NCBI GenBank assembly: GCA_016840425.1
Contig: JAEOSI010000036.1
Coordinates: forward strand, 1 to 13,373
Length of the DNA stretch: 13,373 bases
Reading direction: 5' to 3'
DNA from: Candidatus Wukongarchaeum yapensis
GTDB taxonomy: Archaea; Asgardarchaeota; Wukongarchaeia; Wukongarchaeales; Wukongarchaeaceae
Below, one piece after another: positions 1,647 through 13,373 of this stretch; positions within the stretch are counted from its first letter, which is position 1; each line of letters opens with the position of its first letter. The position numbers were made by a program, and so were the translations under genes. A model generated the notes under the pieces. It made no database searches. It was not told the origin of the DNA and saw nothing but the letters and a program-made list of their open reading frames with translations.

Positions 1647-1883
1647 CTGTTAAACCTCTCCGTCTTCTAATCCTGCTTTTAATATTCCTCGGCGGGAAGT
1701 CCCCTTGCGAAAAGTGGGGAATGAAAGCCGAACAATGGTTCTTCTTCGATTTACATTGGATGGATAATTTTTTAGGGTAGAGCCCCCCAAGCGATGTTGG
1801 AGGTGGTAATGATATTCTCATTACTTATCGCCTTGGGAGCTCTAAAGATCTTTAATGATTTTGTTGGTTCTTTAACTTTTTTG

Positions 1884-2354
1884 TTACGGTTTTTCCCTCC
1901 AGAAAGCGTGGTGAAAATGTTCTAAGAGGAAGGTTTTTGACTGTTTTTTCCTCGTTATGATGTAGTAGTTTATTATCTTTTTTCTTTTTTCATTAAGTTT
2001 TATCAGACGGTGTATTATGGCCTTTAAGATGGTGGATTTTCTCCTAAAAAGTCTTTCTGGTTCGTAAAATATTACAACTTTGATGTTTGGTCTTGCTTTT
2101 CTCCAGTAAATCAGGTTATTAAACTTCTCATAACTCATTACAAGAACATCCATCCCCTTACACTCCTCTTCATCCCTCCAGGAAACTACATCTAAAACCT
2201 TAACTTTAGAATATTCTGAAACAATTTTACTGGTAAAATGCTTCACCTCATCGATCCATGGAACTACTAAAGCACAACATTTCCCGCAAGCTTTAGAAAA
2301 GGCCGCACAAGCCACTGCTACCCCCTCCCTTCTTTCTTTATTCCCAGAAGCCAA
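1884..2354 (-). CDS. Hypothetical protein resembling an isolated, motif-degenerate RecA1 domain of a Hel308/Ski2-like SF2 helicase
   Basis: ALVVP matches motif Ia, DVLVMSYEKFNNL matches motif Ib (DIIVxTxEKxDxL), VVIFYEPERL sits at the motif II position, and terminal WREKP sits at the domain-1/2 linker position. The frame is open upstream to 2411, so the true start is uncertain. Confidence 0.55.
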   Translation of the reverse strand: MASGNKERREGVAVACAAFSKACGKCCALVVPWIDEVKHFTSKIVSEYSKVKVLDVVSWRDEEECKGMDVLVMSYEKFNNLIYWRKARPNIKVVIFYEPERLFRRKSTILKAIIHRLIKLNEKRKKIINYYIITRKKQSKTFLLEHFHHAFWREKP

Positions 2355-2414
2355 AACAAACCCCTCACCCCCTTCATAGAGTAACCTTGCAACATCAAAA
2401 AGTTTGTAAGGTTA

Positions 2415-2467
2415 CATGTTTGTAGTCTTATTGCATATGTAAAAACCCACTCCATGTTTGTAGTCTT
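2415..2467. repeat. 15-bp perfect direct repeat CATGTTTGTAGTCTT (2415-2429 and 2453-2467)
   Basis: Read directly from the sequence, with a 23-nt spacer. The second copy abuts the start of tnpB homology. Confidence 0.9.
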
Positions 2468-2606
2468 GAAAAGGGGTTTAGAAGAGGTGCTAGGGCAGAG
2501 ATTGTCCGAATTTACGCCTGTGGAGATAGAACCTCTACCGAGAGAAATCTCGGCATGTTCAGTCGTTGAACCAGGAAACTCCCCGCGATAGCTGGGAGTA
2601 GTTCAC
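2466..2606 (+). mobile_element. IS200/IS605-family remnant: tnpB 3' tail and right end (non-autonomous)
   Basis: The + frame reads (V)LKRGLEEVLGQRLSEFTPVEIEPLPREISACSVVEPGNSPR* (stop 2589-2591), like the TnpB C-terminus after the RuvC DRDxNAAxN motif. A subterminal hairpin ACTCCC-c-GC-GATA-GC-t-GGGAGT (2578-2599) is followed by AGTTCAC, a typical Y1-type right end. The left boundary is not resolved; a 12-bp hairpin at 2381-2415 may belong to it. Confidence 0.8.
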
Positions 2607-2621
2607 TATTCCTCTATTGGT

Positions 2622-3107
2622 CTATTTATTTGTGTTTACTGATTTACTGATTTTTTGTAGGGTTTTTGATATGTTTTTCCAGTGGATTCCCGGCCAAAAA
2701 ATTTTACCGCACTTTTGACATTCCCAAAATTCGTTATAAGCCTTGAGTGATCGTTTAGGTACTTTTTGAGTGAGGAACTGTTTTGAAACTTTTACGAGCA
2801 TCCCATTGCATATGGAGCAGCGGGTTGGATTAAGTTCTAAGGATATTTTTAGACGGATTGCTATCTCTTTTAGTTGTTTCGTGATTTTATCATTTTTCAG
2901 AAGTATAGCGTTTAAGCTAGTTTTTATAGCTTTTTGAAAAAGCTCTTTATCTCGAGTAACTATTATTCGGCCGCGTTTTCTTCCCTCTTCCAAGAGGGCA
3001 GTATCAGTTACTTGTGGGTCATAAGTTACATCATGACCGAGCATTCTTAGCCATCGGGCAAGCTTTCCAAGATGAGCGTCCAAGGCAAAACTGTGCTCCT
3101 GCCCCAT
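2622..3107 (-). CDS. Mut7-C RNase domain protein (PIN fold plus Zn ribbon; COG1656/DUF82)
   Basis: ALDAHLGKLARWLRMLGHDV, D..LL, IIVTRD, RCSICNG and WECQKCGKIFWPGIHW motifs. SD AAGGTG lies 7 nt before the ATG. Confidence 0.93.
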   Translation of the reverse strand: MGQEHSFALDAHLGKLARWLRMLGHDVTYDPQVTDTALLEEGRKRGRIIVTRDKELFQKAIKTSLNAILLKNDKITKQLKEIAIRLKISLELNPTRCSICNGMLVKVSKQFLTQKVPKRSLKAYNEFWECQKCGKIFWPGIHWKNISKTLQKISKSVNTNK

Positions 3108-3127
3108 GGGAATACACCTTTTTTGAT

Positions 3128-5429: not shown

Positions 5430-7490
5430 TTAAATTATTGACCTTTTTTTTCTCTTTAAGGTTTCCGTTTCTGCTATCTTGGAGGGACCGGGGATGAAAG
5501 TTATTATCTCGTTTAGATCTATAACTTTTACTTTTTCTTTATCTTCATCTTCAACATTTTTCAGGAAAAAATCTTTTATTTTCCTAGCTATCTTTCCCTT
5601 GGGTTCATTGTTAGGCTTAATTAAAACGTAAATTCTGGATTGTTTTTGGATGGCTGTTAGTGGTCCTCCAACAATTTGGGCAAAATCTTCACGAATATCA
5701 AGTCCTATGCCAAGTTCTAGGGGCATTCCTTTTAAATAATTTCTCTCGCCATAGATCATTACCCCGCCTTTTGGGAGATATTGACCGCTTGGGGCTGAAA
5801 AAGAAACCTGGCTTGGTTTAACCCAATAGGCATCTACAGCACCAAGCTTTTCTTTCCAACCCTTTGAATAAGAGACAGCAAATTGAGCGGCCTCACTTAA
5901 AGTGATTTCAGGAACAGTTTCTAACTGTTCTAGTTTGATTATGGTGTGAGGGGCACCGTGAACTTCTGCATGAAGAAAGATATCCTTTTCCTTTAGATGT
6001 TTTTTAACAAGCTCTTCGTTGGTTTTTGCATCGCGCCCGCCGATTACGAGAACTCCATCAGAAGATATAAACCAGTGATACTTCTCGTACCATTGTTTTT
6101 GGCGCTTTTTTACCGGTTTTATCTCCTTTTCTTCGAGGACTATTCTGCCAGATTTATGTTCTTCTATTTTTTTCAACGTCTCTTCTAAAGCCTTTTTAGC
6201 TGAAGGTATTTTCTTTGCAGCCTTTTTTGCAGATTGATAGTATTTTGTCGCATTTTCAGTAACCGACTTTGTTATATCGATTTCAACAGTTAAATCATCT
6301 ATTTCAACAATCATAATGCCCTTTTTTGGTACCATGGATTTGACTATTTCTGCTAGTTTAATCCCTTTTTCCGCTCCCTCTTTTAACCGCTCAACAATCT
6401 CTTCCCATGAAAAGCCTTCCCTTCTTACTTTGTTTAAAGTCTGTAAAATCTCTTCCAATTCGTGGGCATGATTGTATATAGCATCACCTATTTTTCGATA
6501 ATTCTCCGCGATATATTCAATCTCTTTTAGTCTATCTTCTTGTTTGTCTAAGATTTTTTCAAGTTTTTTAACTTCTGATGCTATTTTATCTACTTCTTTT
6601 CCAATGTCTTTCTTCAAATAAAGTCGAGAAAAATATTCATCACAGGCTTTGTTAAAAGATGGAGATTTCTCCATTTTCAAGCCTTTATCTTCATAAATTT
6701 TAAGCCTTATAGGAGTAACATCAATCACTTGATCATCAGTTAACACAATTACAGACTCAAAATCTTTCTCCATTATTTTTTTACCTAAAAATTCGATGGC
6801 GAGATATACCGCCCTAATCTCTTCATCAGAGAGCTCTTTAGCGGGTTTCATAGGGTCAATGTTTGCCCGCATACATATCTCTTCCCCATATAAACCTCCG
6901 ATATTTATCTCTTTTACAAGGGTTCTTATGATGTCTATTTCAGAAATAGATAACAGGTTTTTCAGATCACTAACACCTATGGTGAAAAAATCCGATCCAC
7001 GGGCAGGAGCAAACTCAAACTTTGCTTTGGGTATAAGATCACGATCACGCATTTTCCTGTAAAATTTTGCCATCAAAATTTTTTCTTCTTCATCAAGAAG
7101 AATCAAGTTCCCCCTGCCGAAAAGTTCAATAATCATTCTGAAATGTTTATCCCCACGTTTGAGATCAAGCACGATTATTCTGTCAAAACGCCATTGCTCA
7201 ATGTTTATTATATGGGATCCCCTCACATGTTTTCTCAAAGCTGAACAAAAACCAGGAGGTATTTTGGGAAAAACGTAAGAAAACTCGGTTAAATGAAACC
7301 TTTTACCAAGTTCTATTAGTAGTAAGTAAGAGCCACCATGACGAGGGCGAAGCTTAAAAAAGAATAAATCATTTACTTGGCAAAGTTGGTAAATATTATC
7401 AATAAATGCATCGATCAAAAGTGGTTTAAGCTCTTGAACCAATGCTGCTACATCTACATTAGAAAATTCAGTTTTAATTTTTAGACTCAT
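5430..7490 (-). CDS. rqcH: Ribosome quality-control protein Rqc2/NEMF/RqcH (NFACT family)
   Basis: NFACT-N (DVAALVQEL, IDNIYQ, FDRII, ELFGRGNLIL), an HhH region, a long coiled coil, and NFACT-R (KYHWFISSDGVLVIGGRDAKTNE, HAEVHGAP, VDAYWVKPSQVS, GQYLPKGGVMIYGERNY). Confidence 0.93.
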   Translation of the reverse strand: MSLKIKTEFSNVDVAALVQELKPLLIDAFIDNIYQLCQVNDLFFFKLRPRHGGSYLLLIELGKRFHLTEFSYVFPKIPPGFCSALRKHVRGSHIINIEQWRFDRIIVLDLKRGDKHFRMIIELFGRGNLILLDEEEKILMAKFYRKMRDRDLIPKAKFEFAPARGSDFFTIGVSDLKNLLSISEIDIIRTLVKEINIGGLYGEEICMRANIDPMKPAKELSDEEIRAVYLAIEFLGKKIMEKDFESVIVLTDDQVIDVTPIRLKIYEDKGLKMEKSPSFNKACDEYFSRLYLKKDIGKEVDKIASEVKKLEKILDKQEDRLKEIEYIAENYRKIGDAIYNHAHELEEILQTLNKVRREGFSWEEIVERLKEGAEKGIKLAEIVKSMVPKKGIMIVEIDDLTVEIDITKSVTENATKYYQSAKKAAKKIPSAKKALEETLKKIEEHKSGRIVLEEKEIKPVKKRQKQWYEKYHWFISSDGVLVIGGRDAKTNEELVKKHLKEKDIFLHAEVHGAPHTIIKLEQLETVPEITLSEAAQFAVSYSKGWKEKLGAVDAYWVKPSQVSFSAPSGQYLPKGGVMIYGERNYLKGMPLELGIGLDIREDFAQIVGGPLTAIQKQSRIYVLIKPNNEPKGKIARKIKDFFLKNVEDEDKEKVKVIDLNEIITFIPGPSKIAETETLKRKKRSII

Positions 7491-7505: not shown

Positions 7506-7844
7506 ATGAATCCAACTTTACGTGAAAAGATTCAAAAACTAAGTACTGGTGATAAAATATACTACATTAAGGTAGGCTTAGCCTCTATAGCTGGAACTAT
7601 ATGCGCTGTTTTAAATATCACTAACTTTCCTGGTTTTATTATAGCAGCCTTCTTTTTATCTATTCCATTTTTATTAGTCAAAATGAACGTATTAGTCCTT
7701 GAGATGGCAGAGGAGGTAAAAGGGAACAAGCAAATATTTAAAGAAACTGTTTTAAAAAACGGGTTTTTTACGTTTTTTTTCGTATTTATGGTGGTATGGG
7801 CATTTATATGGAATATAATTTCTAGTAATGCAAAAAAACTTTAA
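7506..7844 (+). CDS. Three-TM EMC6/RAB5IF(OPTI)-family membrane protein
   Basis: Three hydrophobic segments (IYYIKVGLASIAGTICAVLNI; FPGFIIAAFFLSIPFLLV; GFFTFFFVFMVVWAFIWNII). The C-terminal K.GF.T.F..FMV.W pattern matches my recollection of RAB5IF (KEGFMTSFALFMVIW), and the GFI in TM2 matches EMC6. Confidence 0.65.
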   Translation: MNPTLREKIQKLSTGDKIYYIKVGLASIAGTICAVLNITNFPGFIIAAFFLSIPFLLVKMNVLVLEMAEEVKGNKQIFKETVLKNGFFTFFFVFMVVWAFIWNIISSNAKKL

Positions 7845-8567: not shown

Positions 8568-9308
8568 ATGCTGAAAACTAATAAAAAGGAGAGAGTAAAG
8601 ATAGGAATACCCGGCCTGGATAGTATAGTCCATGGGGGATTCTTGAGGGGATCAAATATACTGATCTCTGGGGGTACAGGCACAGGCAAAACCATTTTTT
8701 GTATGCAATTTTTATACAATGGTGCTACAAAATACGATGAAAATGGGGTTTTTGTCACCCTTGAAGAAAGACCTAAAGAATTAAGAACAGAAGCCGCAAA
8801 ACTAGGGTTCGAGTTTGAAGCCTTAGAAGAGGAAAACAAGCTGATTATTATAGACGCAGCTTCAAGCCGGGCAAGTCTCCCCTCCATGGAAAAATACGCT
8901 GTGCGGAGAGGATTCGATATCAACACCCTCGCCCAAGAAATATACAGGGCAACAAAAGACCTAGGAGCCCATAGAATCGCTATAGATTCCCTATCCGGTT
9001 TAGGCATAAAATTTGAAGGATTATTGGAAATAAGAACAGCCATATTTAAACTCTCAGCCCTTCTAAATGAGTTAGAATGCACATCAGTAATGACAAGCGA
9101 AATACCAGTAAGCAGTTCATGGTCCAGATTCGGCGTCGAAGAATTCATAGCACAAGGAGTTGTAATCCTCTTCCTAGACGAAGAGAAGGGAGAACTGAGA
9201 AGAAGTTTCGTAGTGCGAAAAATGCGGGGAACCAGCCACAGCCTTAAACGTTTCCCCTTCGAGATAACGGATCATGGAATTGTTGTCATGCCTGGTGGGG
9301 AATTATGA
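8568..9308 (+). CDS. Single-domain KaiC/RecA-superfamily ATPase (COG0467)
   Basis: RVKIGIPGLD, Walker A GGTGTGKT, QFLYNG, FVTLEE, Walker B IAIDS, GVEEFIAQGVV, and VRKMRGT.H (Arg finger) followed by PFEITDHGI. Confidence 0.93.
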   Translation: MLKTNKKERVKIGIPGLDSIVHGGFLRGSNILISGGTGTGKTIFCMQFLYNGATKYDENGVFVTLEERPKELRTEAAKLGFEFEALEEENKLIIIDAASSRASLPSMEKYAVRRGFDINTLAQEIYRATKDLGAHRIAIDSLSGLGIKFEGLLEIRTAIFKLSALLNELECTSVMTSEIPVSSSWSRFGVEEFIAQGVVILFLDEEKGELRRSFVVRKMRGTSHSLKRFPFEITDHGIVVMPGGEL

Positions 9309-10263: not shown

Positions 10264-11355
10264 CTACGTTTTTTTAATTTTTGGGGGAGTTATAAGTTTG
10301 AGTTTAAGTTTAAGCGGTTTTTTTAAGCGTTTTTTATCTGTTACAAAGAATATTGGTTTTTTCTCTTTTGAGAGTCTTAGTGAGCGCATTTTAGTGCTTT
10401 TTTCAAGGATTTTTCCATGGAATATGATCTCGGGTTCTATCAAGTCATATGCGATGATTAAACGGTAAAGTATCGCCTCTATTGTTTCATCAAGATCAAC
10501 GGGGAAATCTATTTCCTCAAGCTTTATCTTTTCCCCACATACTGGACACCCAGGATTAAGGCTTAATGGCACATAGGTAAACCTTGAAGCTAATCCATCA
10601 TAAAACATGTAGGATCCAAGTGGTGTTCCAAGGCCTTTTATGAGCAGTTTAACAACTTCTTGACTCATTAGACCTCCGATAATCGTTGATAAAGTGCTCA
10701 CCGCGGGAGCAGGAGGTGGAGGAGGTTCTTCTATTTCTCTTTGAGCCTCTCTTTCTTCACCCCAAGGCGTACATGCCTGTGCAACTACCTCTTGAGGGAG
10801 CAGGGGACTACACATTAAACAAGGTGTTTTACCCGGTATAACCACTTGAATCTGCCCCAAAAAACCATCCATTCCCCCGCTTACCATTGGTTTTTTTAAT
10901 CTTACAGCTATTGCGTTTAACCAAAGCCTACCCTCGAAATTATCCAACGCAGAAACAAGAACATCAGCTTTTTTAAAAACATCTTCATCAAGCTCTTCTA
11001 ATCTACGAGCATACCATTTAATTTTCACATCACGGTTCATAGAACGCAAACGATTAGCTACAATCTGAGCCTTCTTTTTTCCCACATCTTTCTCACGAAA
11101 AAGCAATTGACGATTAAGGTTAGAAAAAGCTACGGTGTCCATATCAACCAAAATAAGCTTCCCTACGCCAGATAAAGCTAAATTCACACCAATAAAACTC
11201 CCAATAGCCCCCACCCCTGCAACAAGCACCTTAGCCCTAGTAAGGTCTTCTTGATACCACCCAGCGACACGTTTTTGACGATCATATCTATCTTCCTCGA
11301 ACAACAGAACCACCCTTCCTATTAAGATTTCTACCACTCCAAAGATTTTAAACAT
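10264..11355 (-). CDS. E1-like ubiquitin-like-protein activating enzyme (ThiF adenylation domain, catalytic Cys, C-terminal ubiquitin-fold domain)
   Basis: DRYDRQ, GVGAIG, VDMDTVAFSNLNRQLLF, LDNFEGR, GGMDGFLGQIQV, CLMC179-182, ACT (Cys195), PAVSTLSTIIGG, CPVC270-273, then a beta-grasp-like region at residues ~279-354. The real start is probably GTG 11313 or TTG 11304. Confidence 0.9.
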   Translation of the reverse strand: MFKIFGVVEILIGRVVLLFEEDRYDRQKRVAGWYQEDLTRAKVLVAGVGAIGSFIGVNLALSGVGKLILVDMDTVAFSNLNRQLLFREKDVGKKKAQIVANRLRSMNRDVKIKWYARRLEELDEDVFKKADVLVSALDNFEGRLWLNAIAVRLKKPMVSGGMDGFLGQIQVVIPGKTPCLMCSPLLPQEVVAQACTPWGEEREAQREIEEPPPPPAPAVSTLSTIIGGLMSQEVVKLLIKGLGTPLGSYMFYDGLASRFTYVPLSLNPGCPVCGEKIKLEEIDFPVDLDETIEAILYRLIIAYDLIEPEIIFHGKILEKSTKMRSLRLSKEKKPIFFVTDKKRLKKPLKLKLKLITPPKIKKT

Positions 11356-11620
11356 AATTTTATCACATCATCCCTTCAAAAATTTAACTAAAACTCAACT
11401 ACGACCACCTAAAGAAAGTGGCTCAATTATCCGGTAAAATCCACTTCCTCCGGGAGCTATTATCCAATTTAATTCTCATTCATATTTGAGAAAAATAAAT
11501 CGACAACTATTTACCAAAAGTTTTTAATAAAACACTATTTAACCTAAAAGGAAGAAGTTATTACAAAGGAAAGATTGTATTATATTGTTTGAATTTGTTT
11601 AAACAGGGGAAATGTAGCCT

Positions 11621-12280
11621 ATGGAGCCTAAGTCCCCAGTCATGGAAAAAAGGCATACCCTAAAAGACAAAGACCCTAATAAAGAAACTAAAATACCAGA
11701 AAAAACGGAACTTATAAATGAATTTTCTAAAATCCATGAGAAAATATTGCTACTAGCTTTAAGAGAAGAAATTCAAAGAAAAACAGACCCAGAAAGCTTG
11801 AACAAGCAACTTTATGATTATACAACTTTTCTTAAGATCCAAAAAAATACTGTAAAACGAGTGTTAAACCAAATTCAGTCATGGTTCGATGAACGTGCTT
11901 TCATTCATAAACTTATGATAAATTTTGTTAAAAACCTTCAATACGAGCCTATAGAAACTGTTGTTAGTGAAAAATACGGGAAATTATTCCTTTTAAATGA
12001 TTTTATCGAGTTTATTTCTAATGTTGATAAAAATAGAGAAAAGATCGTAGAGCTGCTTATATCTACTGCAGAACTTGAAAACGTAATAGAAAGTGCAAAA
12101 AGAGACCAAGAGAAAATGGAAAGTTACTTGGAAATCATCGAGTATGATGAAGAGAAAAAGGATTCATTAGTTGAACGCTTCCTGAAATTTTTTGTAAATG
12201 ATAAACTCTCAGAAGCGAGATCAATCATTCAAAAACTAAAGGAAAATTATAAACACTTCATCAAAAAAACTACTTTTTAA
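11621..12280 (+). CDS. Hypothetical protein, predicted mostly alpha-helical
   Basis: 219-codon ORF with genome-like Lys/Glu-rich usage, filling the gap between the E1 and polB genes. No motif recognised. Confidence 0.7.
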   Translation: MEPKSPVMEKRHTLKDKDPNKETKIPEKTELINEFSKIHEKILLLALREEIQRKTDPESLNKQLYDYTTFLKIQKNTVKRVLNQIQSWFDERAFIHKLMINFVKNLQYEPIETVVSEKYGKLFLLNDFIEFISNVDKNREKIVELLISTAELENVIESAKRDQEKMESYLEIIEYDEEKKDSLVERFLKFFVNDKLSEARSIIQKLKENYKHFIKKTTF

Positions 12281-12311: not shown

Positions 12312-13373
12312 TTAGACGAAAGTATCTAGGCTTGTAAGGCCTAAAACTTCTGTAAAGCTTATACCTAAAGAGTCTAAAACTTGGCTGAAAGTTGTTTGTA
12401 TGTGCTCCTTGTATTTTGGGACATCGATTTCATATTTGTTTGCTTGGCTTATAGGTACCACTGTTTGGGATCCTTTTACTTTCACAAAGTTTATTATATC
12501 GCCCCTCTTAATCGTTCTTCCTGATTGTTCTAAAAGCTTGGCTGCCTTCACATGCTGGGGGGTTGTTTTTACATACTCTGCTGGTGCTTTACTGAGCTGG
12601 ACCGTGAAAGAGAGATCTTCATAGGAGTATTTTCCATTTTCGAGTTTCCGGTAACATTTTCTAACTATTTCCCTTATCTTTTCTTTTGCTTTTTCAAACT
12701 CCTCTATAGAAGTTACTTTTCCAAGTTCTTCGAGCATGGTATAAAAGGCTTCTCTTAAGAATTTCGGCGTGTTTCGCTTCTTACCCATAAGGCCTTTAAC
12801 GTCCACATAACCATCTTCATGAACGCCTAAATAATTCTTTTTCCGCGCGCTTAATGCCACATATCGATAAACTTTATCTACCTCAAGATCCAACCCTAAC
12901 TCTTTGCGACACCATTTAATCAAGCCATTAATTTGTTCAGTTGTGGGGTTTTCAATGAACAGCGAGTCAGTGTCACCGTAAAGAACCTTGATACCGATTT
13001 CTTCTGCTCTTTTTATTGTTTGAGTTATAGCGTATCTACCGATGGCGGTAGTGCTTTCAGCAACGGGAGGACAATAGAGAGGAAAAGTTTCCGCTCCGAA
13101 AACGCCATAACTTGCGTTTACAAAAACTTTTACCGAACGTTCTACCACAGAATAAAGTTCCCTTTGCGATTGCATCAACCCTTTATCCTTGGACTTAGGC
13201 TTGAACCAAAGAACCCTTATATCCCTTAGAAAGCCGATTATTAATGACATGATTCCATCATTTTTCTCGCAAACCCAATGGGAGGTATCTGGCACTTTTT
13301 CTTTTCTACAATCTGGATGGGAACAATTAACTGTCTCGTAAGAAAGATTATAGGTCTTGATTATGCTTGGATA
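12312..13373 (-). CDS. polB: Family B DNA polymerase, archaeal B1-type, C-terminal part (5' partial)
   Basis: The frame is open to the right edge: YPSIIKTYNLSYETVNC...HWVC (B1-type), KVFVNASYGVFG, YGDTDS, RKKNYLG, DVKGL, PQHVKAA. It ends with a PIP-box-like TSLDTFV. The track start at 13295 is internal. Confidence 0.96.
   Translation of the reverse strand, partial: YPSIIKTYNLSYETVNCSHPDCRKEKVPDTSHWVCEKNDGIMSLIIGFLRDIRVLWFKPKSKDKGLMQSQRELYSVVERSVKVFVNASYGVFGAETFPLYCPPVAESTTAIGRYAITQTIKRAEEIGIKVLYGDTDSLFIENPTTEQINGLIKWCRKELGLDLEVDKVYRYVALSARKKNYLGVHEDGYVDVKGLMGKKRNTPKFLREAFYTMLEELGKVTSIEEFEKAKEKIREIVRKCYRKLENGKYSYEDLSFTVQLSKAPAEYVKTTPQHVKAAKLLEQSGRTIKRGDIINFVKVKGSQTVVPISQANKYEIDVPKYKEHIQTTFSQVLDSLGISFTEVLGLTSLDTFV

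Follow-up and report, generated by a model that had tools for sequence, protein, structure and literature searches.

An E1-like enzyme with a short cysteine-bearing loop and a C-terminal ubiquitin-fold domain in the Asgard archaeon Candidatus Wukongarchaeum yapensis

Introduction

The contig JAEOSI010000036.1 of the Asgard archaeon Candidatus Wukongarchaeum yapensis (assembly GCA_016840425.1), analysed here over 13,373 nucleotides (the window), encodes on its minus strand a protein with adenylation motifs, a candidate thioester cysteine and a C-terminal extension. This open reading frame (ORF), termed P0001 (10264..11355), raises the question of whether such a single chain activates ubiquitin and hands it to a conjugating enzyme, or activates a sulfur carrier in the manner of MoeB, ThiF and UbaA. 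A second question is whether its small cysteine segment is an ancestral or a reduced state. From the fold, motifs, gene linkage and phyletic co-occurrence computed here, we conclude that P0001 is very probably the ubiquitin-activating enzyme (E1) of this archaeon, charging a ubiquitin-conjugating enzyme (E2) of the UBC type through a C-terminal ubiquitin-fold domain (UFD).

Archaeal cascades of E1, E2 and RING proteins have been reconstituted in vitro for Caldiarchaeum (PMC5654768) and for Helarchaeia, where the cascade ubiquitinates UEV-Vps23 (bioRxiv 10.1101/2023.07.25.550441). Surveys of Asgard archaea count E1 genes via the ThiF InterPro entry (PMC9192718).

Adenylation domain and protein family of P0001

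P0001 is open over its whole length and encodes 363 residues as listed, with the stop codon at 10264-10266, as in the preliminary description made from the sequence of this DNA. The residue positions given there, namely the zinc pairs C179/C182 and C270/C273 and the candidate cysteine C195 (codon 10771-10773), were all verified by script, as were the starts of TPWGEE...PPPPP at residue 196 and of PAVSTLSTIIGG at residue 217.

A search against Pfam ThiF (PF00899), which the preliminary description had proposed, gave a clear match over residues 34-272 (E = 6e-59; 199.5 bits against a cut-off of 28.1), and the Pfam scan of P0001 returned nothing else above threshold. The adenylation domain of the ThiF/Rossmann type comprises residues 20-275 (10531..11298, minus strand, as for all features of P0001 below) and carries R26, D73, N79/R82/Q83, K95 and D138. 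It includes the ATP-binding glycine loop G47-x-G49-x-x-G52 (11200..11217), a first zinc pair C179-x-x-C182 (10810..10821) and a second pair C270-x-x-C273 (10537..10548), the latter seen both by script and in the family alignment. In an alignment of 35 Asgard homologues, G47, G49, G52, D73, N79, R82, Q83, K95 and D138 are invariant in all 35, and so are the four zinc cysteines, C195 and P217, which argues for a conserved family rather than a chance pattern. The invariant catalytic residues suggest that P0001 is active in adenylation.

The homologue search covered 5.8 billion proteins and yielded 290 matches, with names and lengths taken from the best 120. Among these 120, the named matches belong to Heimdall-, Thor-, Loki-, Freya-, Jord-, Sigyn-, Hel-, Kari- and Hodarchaeota, and most are 325-345 residues long, covering 90-94% of the query including its C-terminal region. 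These sequences place P0001 in a family of about 330 residues that occurs across the Asgard archaea.

AlphaFold2 on the family alignment produced a model with a predicted local distance difference test score (pLDDT) of 84 and a predicted template-modelling score (pTM) of 0.73. Foldseek ranked UBA3 of the Ubc12-trapped NEDD8 E1 complex (PDB 2nvu_B) first for the whole model (E = 3.6e-25 over 409 columns), followed by UBA5, ThiF, MoeB and SAE2. Compared against PDB sequences, the family profile scored highest with UBA1 (200 bits), followed by UBA7 and UBA3 (178 bits), then ThiF (170 bits) and MoeB (165 bits).

C-terminal ubiquitin-fold domain

A C-terminal extension of about 90 residues had been described, and it holds as the stretch left over after the second CxxC pair, the Pfam ThiF match ending at residue 272. 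This tail measures 93 residues in P0001, compared to 79-106 in both Asgard families discussed below, 92 in intact UBA3 and 5-14 in MoeB-like proteins. In the AlphaFold2 model, residues 280-355 form a confident β-α-β-β-β-β module, and the C-terminal domain folded alone also reaches a pLDDT of 84. The UFD is thereby placed at about residues 278-356 (10288..10524). Having no GG end, it is not itself a modifier.

Foldseek of the isolated domain found the UFDs of UBA3 and UBA2 best, with marginal E-values (1.3e-3 at best). A clear ranking came from VIA-align, a Foldseek-independent scan of 48,161 PDB chains, in which E1 UFDs fill all six top places with 72-83 residues aligned: those of UBA3 (2nvu_B, Z = 9.8; 3gzn_B, Z = 9.5; 1y8x_B, Z = 9.1) and of SAE2 (6cwy_D, Z = 9.1; 5fq2_B, Z = 8.9; Arabidopsis 6gum_B, Z = 8.0). 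Ubiquitins come next, at Z ≤ 7.9 over 62-65 residues. Foldseek and VIA-align agree on a β-grasp closest to the UFDs of UBA3 and UBA2, as the preliminary description had anticipated. Its suggested search against E2_bind (PF08825) had a mixed outcome, reaching 2 of the 35 family members and not P0001 by itself; the other Pfam matches among the 35 are to PF00240 (16 members) and UAE_UbL (2 members). The UFD family profile also matches the sequences of ubiquitin, NEDD8 and the RAD23 ubiquitin-like domain (UBL).

We also considered whether the β-grasp serves a purpose other than E2 docking, either as a ubiquitin-like tether to receptors such as UEV-Vps23/ESCRT-I (endosomal sorting complex required for transport) or the proteasome, or as an autoinhibitor of the adenylation site. 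The domain profile is indeed closer by sequence to ubiquitin, NEDD8 and RAD23 UBLs than to Pfam E2_bind, it aligns weakly with the ubiquitin of the same genome, and Asgard UEV domains are known to bind ubiquitin (PMC9192718). However, the closest structures are E1 UFDs, aligned over longer stretches than ubiquitins; the domain follows the second CxxC pair as the UFDs of UBA3 and UBA2 do; and the E2-E1 operon is conserved, with a weak pass for the predicted UFD-E2 complex (see below). A role as tether or autoinhibitor is thus quite improbable, and E2 docking is the preferred assignment. As a separate matter, derivation of the UFD from a fused ubiquitin gene was considered and is not shown, since the hhalign comparison of the UFD profile with the genome's own ubiquitin gave only a probability of 27% (E = 6.7e-4).

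Ubiquitin and E2 partners in the same genome

The assembly of this genome spans 2.16 Mb and is 92% complete. It contains two UQ_con matches. The first, on contig C135, is a 161-residue UBC-fold E2 that has both the HPN motif and a catalytic cysteine. The second, on contig C109, is a 271-residue UEV-like protein in which serine replaces the catalytic cysteine; its gene adjoins those of a RING-H2 protein, a 77-residue ubiquitin with a GG end and a Vps28-like protein (Vps28 by sequence reading). An E2-charging enzyme, as P0001 had been proposed to be, therefore finds both an active-type UBC E2 and a GG-ended ubiquitin in its genome. ESCRT-I and RING proteins are encoded on contigs other than that of the E1.

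Three ThiF-fold genes are present, namely P0001, a 256-residue MoeB-like protein (contig C63) and a fusion of a JAB/MPN domain with an E1 (contig C119). As the other two are MoeB-like and a JAB-E1 fusion, P0001 is the only candidate E1 for the set of ubiquitin, UBC E2 and RING proteins. Beyond these three ThiF-fold genes, no inactive partner subunit of the NAE1/SAE1 type was found in the 92% complete genome, from which we infer that P0001 forms a homodimer; the arginine of the RYxRQ motif near the N-terminus is part of the same chain, as it is in MoeB, a homodimer.

Two further observations concern these contigs. The JAB-E1 fusion, cut by the contig end (C119, 1-1656, minus strand), adjoins a 147-residue E2-like protein (1752-2195, minus strand; locus L005, genome G000), and the two make up a second conjugation module in the genome, of bacterial type. 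The E2 gene on C135 adjoins a gene for a 252-residue protein with PEPVSE and PQPK repeats (1757-2515, minus strand; locus L001, genome G000) and, by sequence reading, one for a small Ras/Rab-like GTPase (2787-3113, plus strand).

The interaction between the UFD and this E2 was modelled from the UFD alignment and an 18-sequence E2 alignment, a structure prediction that the preliminary description had put forward. The complex scored 0.40 compared to 0.01 for the best control, with runs agreeing in at least 93% of contacts and a partner pLDDT of at least 87. Of 80 solved complexes, 58 reach the mark it passed, as do 2 of 110 mismatched pairs; those passing at scores of 0.60 or below comprise 7 of the 80 solved complexes and both mismatches. 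The outcome is accordingly a weak pass.

Conserved linkage of E1 and E2 among Asgard genomes

We examined 41 related genomes, counting as full-length family members the proteins that score above 320 bits over profile positions 1-331. A full-length family E1 occurs in 28 of the 41, and all 28 also encode the E2 family; 12 genomes have neither, and the remaining one has only a weak E2 match, which adjoins a long-type E1 (see below). In 21 of the 28 genomes, the E2 gene directly precedes the E1 gene in the same orientation, the two being separated by 15-145 bp. The remaining seven, in which the genes lie apart, comprise this genome, its genus-mate and five more. Although related genomes do not count as independent samples, the E2-E1 linkage spans many family-level groups.

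Of five homologue contexts read, four have a ubiquitin gene close upstream of the E1; one of the five shows the order ubiquitin-E2-E1, and one lies inside an ESCRT cluster with Vps4, ESCRT-II, Vps28 and UEV genes. A natural fusion was also noted: P0089 (417 residues) joins an N-terminal ubiquitin domain (PF00240, PF11976) to an E1 of the short family, and groups with Heimdall-type members in the tree described next.

Phylogenetic position outside MoeB and ThiF

A phylogeny, likewise proposed in the preliminary description, was inferred with IQ-TREE (LG+C20+F+G4) from 94 rows and 255 adenylation-domain columns and rooted on E. coli MoeB and ThiF. Sequences came from a profile search of 1.84 billion representatives and a search for longer proteins, and included eukaryotic UBA1/2/3/6/7, other prokaryotic E1-like proteins and MoeB-like proteins, with E. 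coli MoeB and ThiF from annotated records. The JAB-E1 fusion on C119 was left out, as only 87 of its columns could be merged. P0001 falls in a clade with the eukaryotic E1s at a support of 100/99, and does not group with MoeB or ThiF: the E. coli enzymes, the MoeB-like paralogue of this genome and other MoeB-like proteins of about 250 residues all lie outside.

These data bear directly on the sulfur-carrier reading, in which P0001 would work like MoeB, ThiF or UbaA and activate a sulfur carrier or a modifier resembling small archaeal modifier proteins (SAMPs), with no E2 involved and with an unrelated C-terminal appendage. Names point in this direction: MoeB and ThiF are the top NCBIfam names, databases label family members "ThiF family adenylyltransferase" or "HesA/MoeB/ThiF", and the position of the crossover cysteine is shared with ThiF and MoeB. 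The scores do not: every NCBIfam model of MoeB, ThiF, UbaA and Ube1 falls far under its curated cut-off (MoeB, 152.6 against 449; ThiF, 132.1 against 275; UbaA, 118.4 against 450), so that P0001 is no equivalog of any of these named enzymes. Moreover, the genome has its separate MoeB-like gene, MoeB and ThiF stay outside the well-supported clade, MoeB-like proteins lack a tail of comparable length, and the E2 is operonic with the family E1 in 21 of 28 relatives and found with it in all 28, with ubiquitin adjacent in four of the five contexts read. The sulfur-carrier reading is therefore disfavoured, and we hold it to be highly improbable. Altogether, the UFD fold, the E2 linkage, the E2 and ubiquitin in the genome and the tree position give good computational support to the proposal that P0001 is a true E2-charging E1.

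Crossover segment and Cys195

Between the first zinc pair and the following helix lies a crossover segment (residues 183-216; 10708..10809), which is short, first acidic and then proline-rich, and modelled with low confidence (pLDDT 49-65). It bears Cys195 (10771..10773) in the context QAC-T-P, the candidate thioester cysteine. The preliminary description had compared this motif to PxCT; the Cys-Thr pair is present, whereas the proline is not, the sequence here being A-C-T and the family consensus QAC[TS]P. The post-crossover helix starts with PAVSTLSTIIGG (residues 217-228; 10672..10707), equivalent to the PAIATT helix of E1s and headed by the invariant P217, and the modelled helix spans residues 219-238.

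Measured from the second cysteine of the first CxxC pair to the conserved proline, the crossover is 35 residues long in P0001 (C182 to P217). It measures 29-48 residues in the family of P0001, hereafter the short family, compared to 82-87 in a long Asgard E1 family, 85-86 in UBA3, 183-202 in UBA2 and mostly 11-20 in MoeB-like proteins. Only about 21 residues separate C195 from the next helix in the short subfamily. The reduced cysteine half-domain of about 20 residues reported earlier is thus real as a short, cysteine-bearing crossover segment. In the Pfam scan, P0001 gave no match to the catalytic-cysteine domain PF10585, and the PxxPEHC motif is absent; the short family is without the separate catalytic-cysteine domain of eukaryotic E1s. 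The C195 column is kept in 24 of 24 short-family rows and 15 of 18 long-family rows, and is the same profile column as the UBA3 cysteine. By its invariance and position, C195 is a candidate for thioester formation.

Alternatively, P0001 might adenylate ubiquitin without forming a thioester of its own, the cysteine of the UFD-held E2 attacking the adenylate directly and C195 having a structural or regulatory role, for example in redox sensing. There is no cysteine domain that could bring the cysteine to the adenylation site, the crossover loop is short and poorly ordered, and MoeB-type enzymes function without the loop cysteine. Yet all 35 divergent homologues keep C195, which falls in the catalytic cysteine column of UBA3, and UBA5 and ATG7 employ a crossover-loop cysteine without any cysteine domain. 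We regard direct attack by the E2 as unlikely and retain C195 as the candidate acceptor.

Proposed mechanism and its weighing

We propose that Mg-ATP and the 77-residue GG-ended ubiquitin would bind to the ThiF-fold domain, which probably forms a homodimer as in MoeB, ThiF and UBA5 and would adenylate the C-terminal glycine of the ubiquitin. Cys195, on the short flexible crossover loop, would then accept ubiquitin as a thioester. The UFD would dock the 161-residue UBC-fold E2 encoded on C135, with its HPN motif and catalytic cysteine, and ubiquitin would pass to the E2 cysteine, from where RING proteins may steer it to targets such as the ESCRT-I component UEV-Vps23. The thioester on Cys195, the dimer and the UFD-E2 docking are postulated by homology with related enzymes. 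If so, P0001 would be the one enzyme in the genome able to start a pathway of ubiquitin, E2, RING and ESCRT whose parts are scattered over contigs.

Several observations weigh against this assignment. In this genome, the E1 gene stands apart from the ubiquitin, E2 and RING genes, its neighbours being TrmI, a 219-residue ORF with no Pfam match and a family-B DNA polymerase (PolB). Searched as single sequences, neither P0001 nor its C-terminal 89 residues gave a Pfam match to ubiquitin or E2_bind, and it is the family profile and the predicted structure that identify the UFD. The weak pass of the modelled UFD-E2 complex points at most to a likeness to solved UFD-E2 complexes. C195 sits on a loop modelled at a pLDDT of only 49-65, and as MoeB from E. 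coli can dispense with its equivalent loop cysteine, the position by itself is no proof of a thioester role. Finally, the Caldiarchaeum E1 is described in a review as having a separate cysteine domain of 60 residues (PMC11354881), whereas the short-loop subfamily has none.

Two E1 families and the origin of the short segment

The preliminary description had called P0001 a candidate minimal ancestral form. The short segment stands; on ancestry the data lean neither way. In the tree, the short family comprises 24 rows (support 96/92) and the eukaryotic E1s are supported at 100/92. In the free maximum-likelihood tree, the eukaryotic E1s group with the long Asgard family of about 410 residues (91/92), of which the named members belong to Helarchaeota and Ranarchaeia, names being known for 4 of the 20 representatives from the outgroups or the long family. 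The short family, the long family with eukaryotes, and a third group of 16 rows form a polytomy at 89/90. In the approximately unbiased (AU) test, a clade of short family and eukaryotes was not rejected (p = 0.55), the constrained tree having a log-likelihood 2.7 higher, so that the adenylation-domain tree cannot settle between an ancestral and a reduced short form.

A profile built on the long-family crossover insert matches UBA3 in the corresponding region (E = 2e-8 and 5e-7), and both carry the motif C-T...P-R-x-x-E-H-C. The insert is thus homologous, a derived character that the long family shares with eukaryotic E1s. Segments of 11-34 residues are found throughout the outgroups, which comprise MoeB/ThiF-like proteins and three further groups of prokaryotic E1-like proteins. 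This makes the short segment the parsimonious ancestral state, and short-loop outgroups favour the short form as ancestral. It is tentatively possible that the short-loop family represents a distinct E1 class that forms the E1-ubiquitin thioester on a crossover-loop cysteine, hands ubiquitin over to a UBC E2 by way of the UFD, and preserves the state before the cysteine-domain insertion. If this is true, the UFD and E2 coupling would be older than the cysteine domain in the line to the long Asgard E1s and eukaryotic UBA1/2/3.

Secondary reduction would read the same data in reverse: a UBA3-like archaeal ancestor had a cysteine-domain segment of about 85 residues, and the short-loop E1 lost some 50 of them while keeping its function, which would make it a derived paralogue. 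The UBA3-sized, homologous insert of the long family and its grouping with eukaryotic E1s speak for such a course. Some genomes hold both E1 types, each adjoining its own E2, so the long and short types are paralogues, and paralogous systems within the same genomes allow reduction. Set against this are the uniformly short segments of the outgroups, the unresolved polytomy and the AU test, by which eukaryotes may equally join the short family. Reduction is a somewhat doubtful course on these grounds, though one to be kept in mind beside the ancestral reading.

Several related Asgard genomes contain not only the short E1-E2 pair but also a second E2 paralogue immediately next to a long E1 (G027:C406:520-1592; G037:C1:1910297-1911373; G009:C61:139439-141221; frames of 389-428 residues), and the long and short pairs are two parallel E1-E2 systems. 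A subgroup of long E1s (P0229, P0230 and P0119) has an insert of the same length and different sequence, lacking PRxxEHC and resembling, by eye, a helix-hairpin-helix (G-V/I...A-R/K-K-L-F...K-T). Five metagenomic proteins of about 435-490 residues (P0288, P0317, P0322, P0351 and P0367) consist of tandem ThiF-like halves, the N-terminal one degenerate and the C-terminal one active; the arrangement recalls the inactive and active adenylation domains (IAD and AAD) of UBA1 and suggests a single-chain pseudo-dimer.

Gene boundaries and other genes of the window

Translation of P0001 probably begins downstream of the ATG at 11355, because residues 1-19 are modelled at a pLDDT below 50, homologue N-termini fall 2-5 residues ahead of RYxRQ in the 35-sequence alignment, and a Shine-Dalgarno-like GGAAGGGTGG sits upstream of a TTG codon at 11304-11302 (11302..11304; residue 18 of the listed ORF). 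Starting from this TTG, the protein would have about 346 residues. At its other end, the lysine-rich tail of residues 357-363 (10267..10287) is not conserved in the family alignment and has low pLDDT.

A 265-bp AT-rich spacer (11356..11620), presumably the promoter region, separates P0001 from the divergent 219-residue Lys/Glu-rich ORF (11621-12280, plus strand), for which the Pfam scan gave no match and the Atlas search no usable neighbour. Beyond it, the C-terminal part of PolB (12312-13373, minus strand) runs off the window; in one homologue context, from a Heimdall genome, PolB is likewise found close to the E1. Elsewhere, the window encodes a Mut7-C RNase-domain protein (2622-3107, minus strand), a 686-residue NFACT/Rqc2-like protein (5430-7490, minus strand) and a single-domain KaiC-like ATPase (8568-9308, plus strand). 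A 112-residue membrane protein (7506-7844, plus strand) matches Pfam EMC6, subunit 6 of the ER membrane complex, above the gathering score (E = 6.5e-8), and by this match is a putative eukaryote-type membrane-insertion component in an archaeon. No tRNA gene was found in the window.

Comparison with known systems

Archaeal E1-like proteins with a C-terminal UBL (Clusters I and II) have been described by Hennell James et al. 2017 (PMC5654768), and the novelty implied in the preliminary description was accordingly overstated. P0001 belongs to this published class: it shares the C-terminal UBL, the position outside ThiF/MoeB/MoeZ and the linkage to ubiquitin, UBC E2 and RING genes, the last seen across its family, with the partners on other contigs in this genome. 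Its subfamily is without the catalytic-cysteine insert of about 50-60 residues. Archaeal E1s being already established, P0001 adds detail and leaves the picture unchanged.

MoeB, ThiF and UbaA resemble P0001 in the Rossmann fold, the two CxxC pairs and a cysteine about 12-13 residues past the first pair. They differ in having neither a UFD nor an E2 partner and in lying outside its clade. UBA5 and ATG7 are alike in a catalytic cysteine (a candidate in P0001) on a short crossover loop, the lack of a cysteine domain and a homodimeric state, which P0001 probably shares; in UBA5 the dimer binds its ubiquitin-like protein in trans. UBA5 structures match its adenylation domain; however, P0001 ends in a modelled folded UFD, whereas UBA5 and ATG7 have none and recruit E2s via a C-terminal peptide and an N-terminal domain, respectively. 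Their partner E2s (UFC1 and ATG3/10) also differ from the UBC E2 of this genome.

UBA3 is the best match of P0001 in both the whole model and the UFD (2nvu_B, 1y8x_B, 3gzn_B), and the SAE2 UFDs 5fq2_B and 6cwy_D match as well. The order of first CxxC, Cys-Thr, helix, second CxxC and UFD is common to UBA3, UBA2/SAE2 and P0001, but the segment of 35 residues in P0001 is far shorter than those of UBA3 and UBA2, and the PRxPEHC motif is absent. Compared to canonical UBA1/2/3, P0001 thus has the Cys-Thr after the first zinc pair (C195-T196) and the UFD fold, and lacks the cysteine domain and a pseudo-dimer partner of the IAD/NAE1/SAE1 type.

The long Asgard E1 family shares with P0001 the adenylation domain, the zinc sites, the cysteine column, the UFD and, in several genomes, an adjacent UBC E2. 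It differs in its UBA3-homologous insert and its grouping with eukaryotic E1s, and has no member in this genome. Our literature search found no explicit description of this split between a short loop and a UBA3-sized insert, which may still be published. Asgard archaea hold two E1 designs, one without and one with the UBA3-type cysteine-domain insert, each with its own E2, and a biochemical comparison of both would bear on the need for a cysteine domain in E2 charging and on the order in which the parts of eukaryotic E1s were assembled.

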